NCBI GenBank assembly: GCA_002361235.1
Contig: DESI01000005.1
Span: 204-64,203, forward strand
DNA: 64,000 nucleotides
Origin: Porphyromonadaceae bacterium UBA3318
Lineage (GTDB): Bacteria; Bacteroidota; Bacteroidia; Bacteroidales; Muribaculaceae
Direction: 5' to 3'
Position 1 is the first letter of the stretch, and each line of letters begins with the position of its first letter. Below the pieces are notes generated by a model. It searched no databases, was not told where the DNA came from, and saw nothing but the letters and a program-made list of their open reading frames with translations. Shown in pieces: positions 18,452 through 22,826 of the stretch. Both the position numbers and the translations under genes were made by a program.

Positions 18452-18841
18452 TCATCGATTTTGGATTATGTTGACATACGTGTCGTCCGGCCCGTAATGA
18501 TGGAGTTCTATCTTGCGTTTTTGGCCTGTCTTATTAGGCTCGACCATAAAACGCGTGGACCTGTCTTTAGATGACACTTCTACTTTGAGCCAATTATGTG
18601 TGAATATAGTGTCATATTTATATATACAGAATATATCTTCATGCTTGGTCGATTGCTGTGGTTCAACATAGTAACCTCGGAAATCCAAATTCGAAGTAAT
18701 GGTACCGCCCTCGCTTGGAAACGTTATTTTACGCGGGAATCTTTTATCACGTTCATACAGGTGGCAACCTGACAGAACGATTCCCGACAATAAAATGGAC
18801 ATAAACAGTCCTATAAGCTTAACAATATTTTTTGAATTCAT
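18452..18841 (-). CDS. Small lipoprotein downstream of the C10 protease (BACON-like beta-sandwich; possible inhibitor)
   Basis: Lipobox LSGC; KITFPSEGGT, NWLKV, FMVEPNKTGQKR resemble BACON-type domains. Confidence 0.55.
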   Translation of the reverse strand: MNSKNIVKLIGLFMSILLSGIVLSGCHLYERDKRFPRKITFPSEGGTITSNLDFRGYYVEPQQSTKHEDIFCIYKYDTIFTHNWLKVEVSSKDRSTRFMVEPNKTGQKRKIELHHYGPDDTYVNIIQNR

Positions 18842-18939
18842 ACTTTTTTTATATAAAACTGATAAATCAATTCTTTTAGTATAAAACTATCTAATAATCC
18901 GAGAATTAATAATAATCATATTATCTACGGAGTCTGACA

Positions 18940-18970
18940 GGAAGTATTGTGGAAATTCCACAATACTTCC
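18940..18970. repeat. Perfect 15-bp inverted repeat with 1-nt centre
   Basis: GGAAGTATTGTGGAA-A-TTCCACAATACTTCC. Confidence 0.9.
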
Positions 18971-18989
18971 ATATCATTACTCGTAAGTT

Positions 18990-20465
18990 TTAATCATATA
19001 CCAGTATACGGACAGAATTGTTATAATTTATCTTCTTGCCGTTATCATTTTCATTATCATAGATGTTATACTTGCTTTTCAAATTGAATACGCCATCTAT
19101 ATAGAATCCATTACAATCTCCACCCCATCCGAAATCACAATGAACCATTTTTATATCTTGTGCACCATATTTTGATGTTCTATAGCCATCAATATTCCAG
19201 GCATGTGCATTATAAAATTTGATACCGGGCATCCCGCTGATTGCCAAGGGATGATTATTATCAATCATTTCCTTAATCCTATCAAACGAGTTCTCTATAT
19301 TGGCTACACCATGATATCCATTTCTTGAAAGAAATTTTTTTGCCCTATATGGGAATACAAACGTTCCTTCGTAGAAATACCATGGATTGCATCCATCAGC
19401 CACAGCACGTAGAAATAAAGCGACTTCGGCTGATGAACCCGATCTATAATTGTTGATAATGTCCCAATCGAAAGTATGATCATGATATGTAAAGGTTTCT
19501 GGATGTCGATTGTATGCTAATATCTTAGCAAGAGCCAAGGGGAAACAGCCGGTTGAAGCGTGCTTTTCCTTTTTCGATAAGAACTTCTTAACCATTGGGA
19601 AGTAAATATTTAAGTAGGGAGATTGCCACCAATCAACAAAATTAGAGAGTAAAGGTCCTTTAATTACAACATCCGATTCGTGAAGTGTGGGGCCAGAGCC
19701 TCCACCGCCAATCTCCACTCCATCCAAGCCCCGCGGATCACGCATATGATTATCATTGACCTTGTTGTCATTGATGTTGTTCCGTGCATAATCTATTGAA
19801 CTGCCTACAATGTATGTTTCAAGTTCATCATTGGGAGTCGTTGAGCTATTCATTGTATCAAGCGGCTCATATCCTGACGTATCGAAATCTCCTATGAGGT
19901 ACTCTCCTTCTTCCTCAATATAGAAATCGACAGTGTTTGGATTGATAAAAGTTTCCGTACCTCCGCCCGGAACGGTATCAGTAAAGAATCCGGGGCCGTC
20001 CAGGGGGAATCCTTTATACAATGGCCGGTTGCCGTATGTTGCTTCATAACGGGCTATCGCATCTTCGCTTATTTCTCCTTGCTCCGACACTCCTATTACC
20101 GGCGTTTCGACTCGTTTATCGGCAGCAAGTAGAGCGAATCCCTGCTGGTTTTCGAAATTCGCCACATACAACAGCGTCGTCGTATCCTCGGCTTCGCCTC
20201 GGGTGGCCTTGTCATAGTTTCTGATGCCAATCAGATTCTTTACGCGCGGAGCGGAAGCTGATGTCCTTGTGTTTCCCCTGCTGTTGGCGGCGAAGAACGC
20301 ATCCAGATTGGCAAGCGCCTCTTCTTCCGAGATCCGGAAGGGATTGGTGCCGTTGTCTGTGTTCGTCTCTGTGACAGGTGCAGCCGGCATATCCTGGTTG
20401 CTGACACATCCCGTCAGACAACAGCCGGCCATAACCAGTGCCGCAATAATACTTAGCTTTTTCAT
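18990..20465 (-). CDS. C10 family (streptopain/SpeB-like) cysteine protease lipoprotein with I69-type propeptide
   Basis: Lipobox LTGC; propeptide LYVANF..QGFALLAADKR..PVIGVSEQG; WWQSPY, catalytic TGCFPLALA, HAWNIDGY, HCDFGWGG.CNGFY. Confidence 0.88.
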   Translation of the reverse strand: MKKLSIIAALVMAGCCLTGCVSNQDMPAAPVTETNTDNGTNPFRISEEEALANLDAFFAANSRGNTRTSASAPRVKNLIGIRNYDKATRGEAEDTTTLLYVANFENQQGFALLAADKRVETPVIGVSEQGEISEDAIARYEATYGNRPLYKGFPLDGPGFFTDTVPGGGTETFINPNTVDFYIEEEGEYLIGDFDTSGYEPLDTMNSSTTPNDELETYIVGSSIDYARNNINDNKVNDNHMRDPRGLDGVEIGGGGSGPTLHESDVVIKGPLLSNFVDWWQSPYLNIYFPMVKKFLSKKEKHASTGCFPLALAKILAYNRHPETFTYHDHTFDWDIINNYRSGSSAEVALFLRAVADGCNPWYFYEGTFVFPYRAKKFLSRNGYHGVANIENSFDRIKEMIDNNHPLAISGMPGIKFYNAHAWNIDGYRTSKYGAQDIKMVHCDFGWGGDCNGFYIDGVFNLKSKYNIYDNENDNGKKINYNNSVRILVYD

Positions 20466-20503
20466 AATTTCTCCTTGTATAGTTAGATATGTTTAGTGAT
20501 TTG

Positions 20504-20869: not shown

Positions 20870-20893
20870 GTGACTATGATTGGTTTTCTGCTG

Positions 20894-20901
20894 CAAATGT
20901 A
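20894..20901 (-). promoter_or_regulatory. -7 box for the DUF3244-C10-lipoprotein operon
   Basis: Minus strand TACATTTG. Confidence 0.55.
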
Positions 20902-21064
20902 TAATGATTAAAGTTTTCATCCAACAAAAAAAAGTTTGACAATTAAAATTTTACAATACTGATACTCTTGTACATACGAGTCTCAATTTTTTAGATACGG
21001 TTTTAGACATCAAAAAGTTTGACAGATCATTGTGCAATGGCTTTTGGGAGCAAATAATTATAAT

Positions 21065-21072
21065 TAACTTTG
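21065..21072 (+). promoter_or_regulatory. -7 box for the TPR regulator gene
   Basis: TAACTTTG. Confidence 0.55.
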
Positions 21073-21122
21073 TCGTTGAAAACAAAGCTTTTTTATTGAT
21101 ATCTACCCTAAGACAAGTAATT

Positions 21123-22826
21123 ATGACTCAACCTAAACGTTCAGTATATATTTTTTTCATCACAATTATTGTTATGGCTTTCTCATGCTGTGAAAGAGAT
21201 CGTGAAGCTATGAGCCACTTGGATGTAGCGGAAAATATCATTAATTCGAGGCCTGATGTCGCTCTGACCATCCTCGACAGCATTCATCCTGAAGGTTTAA
21301 ACTGTCGACGGGCGAAAGCAAGATATGCACTTCTGTTTTCAATGGCATTGGACAAAAATTATGTTGATACCACATCTTTTGACGTACTCCAGCCCGCTAT
21401 AGATTATTATATAAAGAACGGCACTCCTGATGAAAAACTTAGAACCTATTATTATCAAGGGCGTATTTACCAAAATCGACAAGAAAACGATTCTGCTTTA
21501 CAATGTTTTGCATATGGTAAAGAATACAGACAAGATATAACTGATACTCTGACAATGGCAAATCTTTTAGTGGCTCAAGCTACTATATTTTTCACCATTT
21601 ATAAGATTAACGACTTCATTAAAGACAATCTTGATGCTGCAAGTCTATTCAATAAAATTGGTCGTTTCGACTCAGAACTATTCTGTTTAACCAATGTATT
21701 GGATGGCAGTTTTGTAAAAGAAGACAAACATCTCGCGGACAGCATACTAAAAATCGTACAAAACAGAAGTCAACAATATCCCAAACTCCAAGAAGATATT
21801 ATACCATATATGCTGACATATAATGTCAAGTTTGGAACTAAAAGCGATGTCATAAATGTAATTAACAATTATTATTCATCTGATGATATTGACGATGAAA
21901 GAAAGATTGATTTAGCTTCAGCTTATTATAATATTGGCGAGGTAGATAATGCACTGCAAATTATAAATTCATTGCCTAAAGTATCTGATTATAGGCATTC
22001 TCTGAAATACCTATCAATAACGGCTCAGATTTTAGAAGGGAAGGGAGATTATGCAAATGCTTTGAAGGCGTATACAAATTTTTACACTGCTTTGGATTCC
22101 ATCCATCAGAATATATTTACGCATGATCTGCTTTTTGTAGAAAAACGTCACGAAATAGAGAAAGCCAACCTTATTGAAATTCAGAAAAAGAATAGAATTA
22201 TATGGCTTAGTATCGGCATTATATTAGTAAGCCTTATTGTTACGGTGTTGATTTATTATCGCTATCGGCTTGGCAAAACACAACGGTTGCTGGCAATACA
22301 GGAGAATGAAAAATTAAAGTTGGAATCTGATGCAAATGCCTTAAAGGCTGAGAATCTGGAATACCAACTGCAACAATTAAAAGAAGAAAGCGTATCTCTT
22401 AAGAACATTCTTAATGCCCGGCAAGATCTGGATCAGCCGGTTCAGAACGCAATCCAAATCAGGCTGGATATGCTTAACAAACTGTTGGCAACAAGTATTG
22501 CCGACAATGCGACTTACTCAAAACAATACGAAGAATGGAGGGATCAGTTATTAGAACACAAAGAAGAATTCATGAACTCCACAAGACTTGCATATAAGGC
22601 GACACATCCCATGTTTATTGATTATCTTGAGAAACATGGTTTGTCAAACGATGAAATCAATCACGCATGCCTATATGCAATCGGGCTGAAAGGTAAGGAT
22701 GTCGGCAACTATACACAACACTCAAGATATTATCACATCAGTAGTGACATCCGTAAGAAACTGGGCATAGACGAGCATCAGACCAACCTTGGAATCTACA
22801 TCCGCAAACTCCTGAAGCAGTTATAG
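21123..22826 (+). CDS. TPR-repeat periplasmic sensor / TM / C-terminal LuxR-like HTH one-component regulator
   Basis: N-terminal signal ending FSCC; TPR motifs (ARYALLFSMALDKNY, RTYYYQGRIY); TM IIWLSIGIILVSLIVTVLIYY; coiled coil; LSNDEINHACLYAIGLKGKDVG...SDIRKKLG; start set at ATG 21123. Confidence 0.75.
   Translation: MTQPKRSVYIFFITIIVMAFSCCERDREAMSHLDVAENIINSRPDVALTILDSIHPEGLNCRRAKARYALLFSMALDKNYVDTTSFDVLQPAIDYYIKNGTPDEKLRTYYYQGRIYQNRQENDSALQCFAYGKEYRQDITDTLTMANLLVAQATIFFTIYKINDFIKDNLDAASLFNKIGRFDSELFCLTNVLDGSFVKEDKHLADSILKIVQNRSQQYPKLQEDIIPYMLTYNVKFGTKSDVINVINNYYSSDDIDDERKIDLASAYYNIGEVDNALQIINSLPKVSDYRHSLKYLSITAQILEGKGDYANALKAYTNFYTALDSIHQNIFTHDLLFVEKRHEIEKANLIEIQKKNRIIWLSIGIILVSLIVTVLIYYRYRLGKTQRLLAIQENEKLKLESDANALKAENLEYQLQQLKEESVSLKNILNARQDLDQPVQNAIQIRLDMLNKLLATSIADNATYSKQYEEWRDQLLEHKEEFMNSTRLAYKATHPMFIDYLEKHGLSNDEINHACLYAIGLKGKDVGNYTQHSRYYHISSDIRKKLGIDEHQTNLGIYIRKLLKQL

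Follow-up and report, generated by a model that had tools for sequence, protein, structure and literature searches.

The regulator SusR (BT3705) of Bacteroides was reportedly described by D'Elia and Salyers in 1996. Regulators of the SusR-like group, unique to Bacteroidota, are proteins of the membrane that combine a periplasmic sensor with a C-terminal helix-turn-helix (HTH) domain; the motifs predicted for them consist of direct repeats at a distance of 67 or 77 bp (Ravcheev et al. 2013, PMC3878776). By architecture and operator layout, they appear to be the closest known kind to the regulator considered here. The locus under study occupies positions 18452-22826 of a 64,000-nt stretch (the window) of contig DESI01000005.1 from Porphyromonadaceae bacterium UBA3318 (Muribaculaceae). 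It consists of a gene for a membrane-spanning one-component regulator, REG, and an operon of three genes encoding a small secreted protein (SML), a C10 protease, and a small lipoprotein. A preliminary description of this DNA had the regulator transcribed divergently from the operon, and a check of the open reading frames (ORFs) confirmed this arrangement, with all four genes at the coordinates given there. As judged by sequence comparison, regulator and operator make up a modular switch, SusR-like in kind, that recurs in gut Bacteroidales and here carries a Bfp1-like protease set. We consider it likely that the locus was acquired horizontally and that its regulator, of the SusR-like one-component type, spans the membrane and activates the adjacent operon of secreted cargo.

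Gene sets of a similar kind have been described in two Bacteroides species. In B. fragilis, the bfi1A, bfp1, and bfi1B genes are co-transcribed, and the published Bfi genes, located within 35 bp of the protease gene, encode small (116-138 aa) exported proteins (Thornton et al. 2010, PMC2873492). In the two papers on this system, the small proteins were read as staphostatin-like inhibitors, and bfp1 mRNA was increased 2-fold in oxygen (PMC2873492; Thornton et al. 2012, PMC3462683). In B. thetaiotaomicron, the TPR protein BT_3442 and the 3d33-like protein BT_3441 head the MACPF cluster BT_3442-BT_3433 (Xu et al. 2010, PMC2954219). TPR genes in two clusters were named as possible regulators in a paper on the mining of peptides that are made on the ribosome and modified after translation (PMC10352776). 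A search of the literature on DUF3244, DUF6377, BT3442, BT3441, and BSAP-5 yielded no functional study of the regulator.

The locus was compared with 80 related loci from species genomes (81 with that of the window), in which ORFs were called and clustered. Conserved 8-mers were counted in the 350 nt upstream of SML in 44 upstream regions, with shuffled sequences and the opposite strand as controls. The 8-mer AAACTTTT is present in 40 of the 44 regions, compared with 1.4 on average and 5 at most in the shuffles and 7 on the opposite strand. The repeat of the related loci is GTnAAACTTT, arrayed at 0/20/83/103 nt; its copies are spaced by 20, 63, 83-86, or 103-106 nt and stand at a fixed distance from the -7 box TAnnTTTG. 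In the array, a copy of GTnAAACTTTT about 72 nt before the start codon is followed by a -33-like [CT]TTG element, a second copy 20 nt downstream, and the -7 box, and one or two extra copies are found in related loci 83-86 and 103-106 nt upstream. The spacing of 20 nt is the commonest across related loci, and in some of them the proximal copy is a perfect palindrome. In the genome of the window (2.68 Mb, 54% GC), GTCAAACTTT has four sites, two of them at this locus. The array is kept in the syntenic orthologues L001 and L002, though the remaining intergenic DNA is only 50-60% identical, and loci without SML keep it in front of the first cargo gene. Among the 80 related loci, it is the regulator and the repeat array before the neighboring operon that stay constant.

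The promoter consensus of Bacteroides, with its -33 and -7 elements, is well established. The "20894 promoter" of the preliminary description coincides with a -7 box of this type, TACATTTG, on the operon strand. The second box, TAACTTTG, is located on the other strand and is probably that of the REG promoter.

One base of the repeat varies, and it does so along with one residue of the regulator's predicted recognition helix: GTC goes with HYH-ISSD, GTA with HYI-ISHE, ATG with HVN-ISSA, and GTT or ATT with HYN-ISS. On a tree built from the sensor part of the regulator only, locus L016 is nested inside the C/H clade (97/93 support) and has changed both the repeat base and the helix residue. Because the array is conserved in nearly all upstream regions and its variable base changes together with the helix residue, REG very probably controls the divergent operon, as had been proposed before. 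The sensor tree intermixes Bacteroidaceae, Muribaculaceae, Prevotellaceae, and Barnesiellaceae, which fits horizontal spread of these loci.

The start of REG, ATG 21123, is supported by the alignment of homologs, in which the lipobox cysteine Cys23 is invariant. The protein is composed of a signal/lipobox segment (aa 1-23), a TPR sensor (aa 24-357), a transmembrane (TM) segment (aa 359-379), a coiled coil (aa 380-435), and a helical, predicted DNA-binding domain (aa 440-567). Its only two hydrophobic segments are residues 5-25 and 359-379, the latter followed by basic residues (RYRLGK), and by the positive-inside rule the TPR domain would be periplasmic and the C-terminal domain cytoplasmic. 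In the AlphaFold2 (AF2) model (pLDDT 76), a TPR superhelix extends over residues 40-307, and a single helix of about 120 residues, which holds the only internal hydrophobic segment (359-379), leads to the C-terminal helical domain. The best Foldseek matches of the model are CTPR (consensus TPR), LGN, Rap, NprR, and MalT; the full model gave TPR matches only, none of them informative on the HTH. Pfam and NCBIfam searches with REG gave only sub-threshold TPR matches, and the N-terminus matches the NCBIfam BT3442 family model (NF053779, 1.6e-15) with 57 bits, far below the cut-off of 940 bits. The lipobox, the two hydrophobic segments, and the modeled TPR fold agree with the preliminary description of a regulator with TPRs and one TM helix.

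The C-terminal ~100 residues are the most conserved stretch of the REG family, and the predicted HTH lies within them, with the recognition-helix motif RYYHISSDIRKKLG. The earlier assignment of this domain as LuxR-like finds no support in Pfam GerE and stands on profile-profile comparison: hhalign of the C-terminal profile against the GerE domains of the same genome gave 87.8% probability (P 3e-6). Further, a hidden Markov model of the domain finds a GerE-positive protein on contig C48 (E 0.006). A six-frame GerE search of the genome does not pick up REG.

Table 1. Genes, operator repeats, and promoter elements of the locus (window coordinates)
Feature	Position	Strand	Basis or remark
129-aa lipoprotein, lipobox LSGC	18452-18841	-	ORF; homolog at the bfi1B position of the B. 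fragilis bfp1 operon
Perfect 15-nt palindrome between protease and lipoprotein genes	18940-18970		Sequence
Lipoprotein C10 (streptopain-family) cysteine protease zymogen, 491 aa	18990-20465	-	Pfam, lipobox, motifs
SML, 121-aa Sec-secreted protein with DUF3244-like Ig/beta-sandwich fold, first operon gene	20504-20869	-	AF2, signal peptide
Probable -7 box TACATTTG of the SML-C10-lipoprotein operon	20894-20901	-	TAnnTTTG equally spaced after repeats in related loci
Second proximal repeat TGAAAACTTT	20910-20919	-	~20 nt downstream of the proximal copy and shortly before the -7 box
Predicted proximal operator copy TGTCAAACTTTT	20930-20941	-	~-68 from the SML start codon
Predicted distal operator copy TGTCAAACTTTT	21013-21024	-	Spaced 83 nt from the proximal copy and 19 nt upstream of the -33 box for REG
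Probable -7 box TAACTTTG of the REG promoter	21065-21072	+	Sequence; kept in L001 and L002; -33 TTTG at 21043-21046
REG, membrane-spanning one-component regulator, 567 aa	21123-22826	+	Start, lipobox, AF2 model, hydrophobicity
Predicted LuxR/GerE-like HTH of REG, aa 508-563	22644-22811	+	hhalign against GerE domains

The regulator family is large, with more than 3,229 clusters at E ≤ 0.001 among the 8,000 candidates examined. Co-occurrence with SML was counted in 49 complete loci, that is, those with enough flank, for SML genes within 1.5 kb of the regulator. SML is present in 29 of them, and the 20 others keep REG, the operator, and the cargo. Where SML occurs, it always comes first after the operator; in 31 loci it lies downstream in the same direction as the regulator, and in ten it is divergent. 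The possibility that SML is an obligatory co-sensor was rejected on the 20 complete loci that retain the operator without it.

The cargo of the related loci is diverse. SML may be followed by radical-SAM/SPASM enzymes together with an OMP_b-brl_3 barrel and a C39-ABC exporter. Other loci carry C39/VKOR proteins, CarboxypepD_reg barrels with GLPGLI proteins (pairs of an outer membrane protein (OMP) and a GLPGLI protein), or an S8 subtilase set, and further cargo includes BspA leucine-rich-repeat proteins, DUF4377 proteins, and proteins with the C-terminal tail of the type IX secretion system (T9SS). In neither the window nor the related loci does the cargo include SusC/D or glycoside hydrolases. 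C10 proteases are the cargo in only three of the 80 loci, namely the syntenic orthologues L001 and L002 and the Prevotella locus L027. Across these loci, SML frequently recurs with the regulator, and the protease is not the constant partner of the regulator. Since the cargo varies and C10 is so rare in it, the protease-specific sense-and-respond or feedback system suggested there is unsupported, the same regulator and operator being found before unrelated cargo, and centering the circuit on the protease would be wrong. A C10-specific regulatory module was likewise rejected, as the cargo varies.

Several regulator loci differ in their surroundings or origin. In about eight of them (L003, L007, L017, L022, L024, L033, L034, and L035), an Xre-type HTH_3 gene of 75-120 aa lies directly upstream of the regulator on the same strand; none is present in the window. 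Loci L032, L035, L038, L052, L071, and L074 come from metagenome-assembled genomes labeled Spirochaetaceae, Eubacteriales, Lachnospiraceae, Treponema, or Ruminococcus, where binning contamination is likely because their regulators nest among Bacteroidales homologs. The genome of the window itself has three further distant TPR-TM-HTH paralogs with about 23% identity (C11:1-4350, C68:4700-7450, and C2:11052-13486; L141-L143). Those on C11 and C68 adjoin 128-aa secreted small proteins, followed by cargo of lipoprotein, OMP, or C-terminal-domain-like type, and the C68 regulator is broken into two ORFs. The paralogs of REG in this genome and in B. fragilis have faint DUF6377 matches only (E 0.003-0.27).

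The analysis shows the anatomy of the genes, the folds, the conserved operator, its co-variation with the HTH, and the modularity of the cargo. We infer that REG binds DNA, that it activates rather than represses, that it senses in the periplasm, and what parts the two small proteins play. In the proposed mechanism, REG would be held in the inner membrane by its N-terminal lipobox/signal segment and one TM helix, with a TPR superhelix of ~330 residues exposed to the periplasm and connected by the long helix and the coiled coil to the cytoplasmic LuxR-like HTH. The HTH would bind the direct repeats of TGTCAAACTTTT, the proximal pair of repeats, 20 nt apart, overlapping the -33 region of the divergent promoter and the distal copy lying 83 nt, or eight helical turns, away. 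A periplasmic signal, probably a peptide or protein, would meet the TPR domain, and REG would then most likely activate the operon and with it the production of the DUF3244-like secreted SML, the lipid-anchored C10 zymogen, and the small lipoprotein that resembles Bfi1B.

Several points weigh against this mechanism. Activation was preferred to repression solely by the position of the sites, and the likeness to SusR is drawn from architecture and operator layout. The classes of repeat base and helix residue are largely clade-bound on the sensor tree, which implies few independent changes, and in the "I" clade the operator base varies (L026 and L027) without a change of the residue. The C-terminal domain of REG has no direct match to Pfam GerE (PF00196) or to DUF6377, to the latter even at E 10; a PDB sequence search with its profile gave no meaningful match; and AF2 confidence is low in this domain (pLDDT 40-80). 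The missing Pfam HTH match and the low confidence would also suit a regulator-like protein that is in fact a membrane scaffold for export or assembly of the neighboring secreted proteins, the repeats being bound by another shared factor, and in 2010 the Joint Center for Structural Genomics proposed that BT_3442 acts via protein-protein interaction with the MACPF protein (PMC2954219). The chance of this seems slight indeed, as the domain is the most conserved of the family and matches GerE HTH profiles, the cargo is too diverse for one export scaffold, and a shared factor would not explain why the repeat base tracks a residue of the C-terminal domain across subfamilies. REG could also be a repressor that occupies the repeats over the -33 region without signal and is released upon sensing; the proximal pair flanks or overlaps the -33 element, a position compatible with promoter occlusion. 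However, SusR, the closest characterized analog, is an activator (PMC3878776), and sites in tandem before the -7 box, with a phasing of 20 and 83 nt, seem typical of activator arrays, so that repression is rather unlikely.

The remaining alternatives concern what REG senses. The protease-centered circuit of the preliminary description, in which the TPR domain detects host or bacterial peptides released by the C10 protease, or its propeptide, and adjusts protease expression, is in line with the peptide-binding TPR receptors Rap and NprR, both among the fold matches of REG. The design of regulator, small protein, C10 protease, and lipoprotein is also shared between this genus and the distant B. 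fragilis lineage, and C10 cargo is found in one Prevotella locus (L027) as well. Still, we hold this circuit to be highly improbable given the rarity of C10 cargo, the same regulator subfamily and the same operator in front of unrelated cargo, and a locus (L106) in which the protease gene is split and the remainder of the cassette is intact. Once exported to the periplasm, SML could instead bind the TPR domain and tune or lock the regulator, as modeled on ToxS for ToxR and VtrC for VtrA, with either positive or negative feedback, which would be compatible with REG as a SusR-like activator. SML recurs near REG, always first after the operator, and its family consists of stand-alone ~120-aa proteins with a Sec signal; pairs of a TPR regulator and a small DUF3244-like protein are also found on C11 and C68, in B. 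fragilis (Bfi1A), and in B. thetaiotaomicron (BT_3442/BT_3441); and between close relatives, divergence in the 5' half of SML goes together with divergence in the TPR domain. This partnership is possible but tentative: 20 of the 49 complete loci lack SML, and the jointly diverging parts form one contiguous DNA block, for which a single recombination tract could account. Going further, the family might represent, in Bacteroidales, an equivalent of quorum sensing by peptides or proteins that acts across the inner membrane, with SML or its N-terminal fragment as the exported cue and the TPR domain as the receptor; the fragment would come from the variable N-terminal part of SML, in this cassette perhaps cut by the co-encoded protease. 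Such a role is decidedly unlikely. If true, it would mean strain-specific auto-induction of secreted weapons and proteases, with the fast-diverging sensor/SML block and the coded operator/HTH pairs insulating co-resident cassettes.

The first product of the operon, SML, is translated from a start at 20869 and has a Sec-type signal peptide. Its AF2 model is a beta-sandwich (pLDDT 84.8), for which the best Foldseek match in PDB is 3d33 (E 7e-4, target-normalized TM-score 0.73, rmsd 2.6 Å), and the DUF3244 crystal structures 4g5a and 3sd2 as well as T9SS C-terminal domains are also among the top folds. Pfam DUF3244 (PF11589) has no match in SML, in 30 members of its family, or anywhere in the genome, Pfam and NCBIfam as a whole gave nothing for SML, and a PDB sequence search with the SML profile gave no meaningful match. 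The name DUF3244 used in the preliminary description is therefore appropriate for the fold and not for the Pfam family. The SML family comprises 493 representative clusters, nearly all of them stand-alone proteins of this size. A six-frame search for DUF3244 across the order found mainly C-terminal domains of large proteins, the context of which was uninformative. The B. thetaiotaomicron genes BT3571-5 are strongly up in a mutant lacking the M16 peptidase MdpA (bioRxiv 10.64898/2026.04.10.717545); BT3571 is a DUF3244 protein (PDB 3sd2), which hints that peptide turnover may feed into DUF3244-led loci.

The protease has a Pfam Inhibitor_I69 propeptide (aa 45-137; 6.9e-12, 46.1 bits with a cut-off of 25) and a Peptidase_C10 catalytic domain (aa 279-455; 1.6e-17, 64.8 bits with a cut-off of 26). 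Gln281 (oxyanion), Cys307 (HASTGCF), and His421 (NAHAW) align with the streptopain catalytic motifs, and together with the lipobox they confirm the lipid-anchored, streptopain-like protease with Gln/Cys/His motifs recognized earlier. In L106 (5355-6843), the C10 gene is split into ORFs of 84 and 395 aa, next to an intact regulator, small protein, and lipoprotein. The palindrome between the protease and lipoprotein genes is not followed by a T-run and is thus not a canonical terminator.

The lipoprotein gene is located 148 nt downstream of the protease gene. Its product matches nothing in Pfam, NCBIfam, or the PDB sequences. With the lipoprotein encoded in the bfi1B place of the bfp1 operon in B. 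fragilis it shares 25% identity (E 8e-11), in keeping with the earlier remark that small lipoproteins accompany C10 proteases, and it resembles the Bfi inhibitors in size, predicted export, and position beside the protease. We regard it as a candidate partner or inhibitor of the protease. Its family has 17 clusters, every one of them within this cassette and from a single genus, apart from the distant relative in B. fragilis, and for that reason a widespread inhibitor family was rejected. Just past the gene, at 18289-18384, there is a GC-rich 26-nt inverted repeat with a 44-nt spacer.

The four-gene cassette forms an island of ~35% GC (31-46% in the 18.5-22.8 kb block, 55-60% in the flanks) against 54-58% for the genome, and appears to be horizontally acquired. 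In two genomes of the same genus (L097 of G002 and L099 of G013), malQ is directly beside mutL, and therefore the ~7.3 kb between these genes in the window (15931-23275), which contain a gene for a 461-aa protein, an OMP gene, the cassette, and a PAS gene, are inserted material. The malQ-mutL gap would thus hold the content of an insertion hotspot. In a further genome, G004 (L100), a different and distant TPR regulator adjoins mutL. Compared with L001 and L002, the cassette is a mosaic: the catalytic region of the protease (18770-19900) is only 45-80% identical and the block 20672-22115, covering the 5' half of SML, the intergenic region, and the TPR domain, 35-77% identical, with 92-100% identity in the segments between the diverged blocks and in the flanks. 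Just past the stop of the PAS gene, its final codons (HYNRD*) occur a second time (22846-22883), and a third, degenerate copy is found at the other end of the cassette (18260-18284; 76% over 25 nt, 11 nt exact). The repeated PAS 3' end looks like a recombination scar of the arrival of the cassette. In L108, a PAS fragment is also present between two copies of the block of lipoprotein, OMP, and 461-aa protein genes.

To our knowledge, the means by which secreted proteases, bacteriocin-like peptides, and pore-forming toxins are switched on in gut Bacteroidales are almost entirely unexplored. The locus offers a concrete promoter and operator for C10 proteases, which have been discussed as virulence or host-interaction factors of Bacteroides. 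If REG binds DNA as predicted, the regulator family would combine a dedicated membrane sensor with a readable DNA code for secreted cargo, and the operator/HTH pairs could serve as orthogonal, signal-controlled expression switches in Bacteroides engineering.

In content, the operon is most similar to bfi1A-bfp1-bfi1B, with the same order of a Sec-secreted protein (~116-121 aa), a lipoprotein C10 protease, and a lipoprotein (~126-129 aa). Gut-metagenome contigs with B. fragilis bfi1A-bfp1 were retrieved with the published bfi1A primer; the published Bfi1B primers have no match on them, so that the identity of the downstream lipoprotein gene with bfi1B is unproven. Immediately upstream of bfi1A, these contigs contain a 562-aa lipobox-TPR-TM-HTH gene whose product is 21% identical to REG, a gene absent from the account of this region in PMC2873492 and PMC3462683. 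The B. fragilis regulator differs from REG in belonging to another subfamily, in being co-directional with the operon, and in the type of its repeats: on one contig (L157:10215-14080), two intergenic ATGTTATC repeats ~55 nt apart precede a TAACTTTG -7 box. Bfi1A was not detected by the SML profile, and it scores 24.8 bits on Pfam DUF3244 with a cut-off of 25. Because it nearly reaches this cut-off, Bfi1A looks like a generic small partner of such cassettes rather than a protease-specific staphostatin. The BT_3442/BT_3441 cluster likewise has a multidomain TPR protein, then a small DUF3244 protein, and then secreted or lipoprotein cargo; there, however, the cargo is pore-forming, BT_3442 has been discussed as an interaction scaffold and not as a regulator, and REG is only its distant relative.

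Among regulators outside this group, ToxR/ToxS, VtrA/VtrC, and CadC of Proteobacteria also couple periplasmic sensing to DNA binding in one membrane-spanning protein, and the ToxR and VtrA genes are accompanied by one for a small, beta-rich periplasmic partner, as the REG gene is by that of SML. Their domain order is opposite to that of REG, with an N-terminal winged HTH and a C-terminal periplasmic domain; the folds are unrelated; and the partner in ToxRS and VtrAC is co-transcribed with the regulator, whereas SML is the first regulated gene. The RRNPP receptors of Firmicutes (Rap, NprR, PlcR, and PrgX) share with REG a similar TPR sensor fold and an adjacent gene for a small secreted protein. 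Unlike REG, in which the TPR domain lies between the signal/lipobox segment and the TM helix and the HTH is C-terminal, they are cytoplasmic and have the HTH, where present, at the N-terminus, and they respond to an imported short peptide from a 40-60-aa pro-peptide, in contrast to the folded ~100-aa domain encoded beside REG. A cytoplasmic TPR, an N-terminal HTH or phosphatase domain, and a short pro-peptide, by which RRNPP systems are recognized, are all absent from the REG locus.

Finally, SusR-like regulators differ from REG in their cargo and sensor. The REG operon is not part of a polysaccharide utilization locus (PUL), having no SusC/D and no glycoside hydrolases; the REG sensor is a TPR superhelix, and its ligand is probably not a sugar; and Pfam DUF6377 is matched faintly and in distant paralogs of REG only, not in REG itself. 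SusR was sought among the distant paralogs in three Bacteroides genomes, the flanks of which were too short for a starch PUL to be recognized. On the other hand, REG, like SusR, appears to be a single inner-membrane polypeptide with a periplasmic sensor and a cytoplasmic C-terminal HTH, occurs in Bacteroidota only, and is predicted to control the adjacent operon through direct repeats with a long intervening spacer that corresponds to whole helical turns, 83-86 bp here and 67 or 77 bp in the SusR-like regulators.

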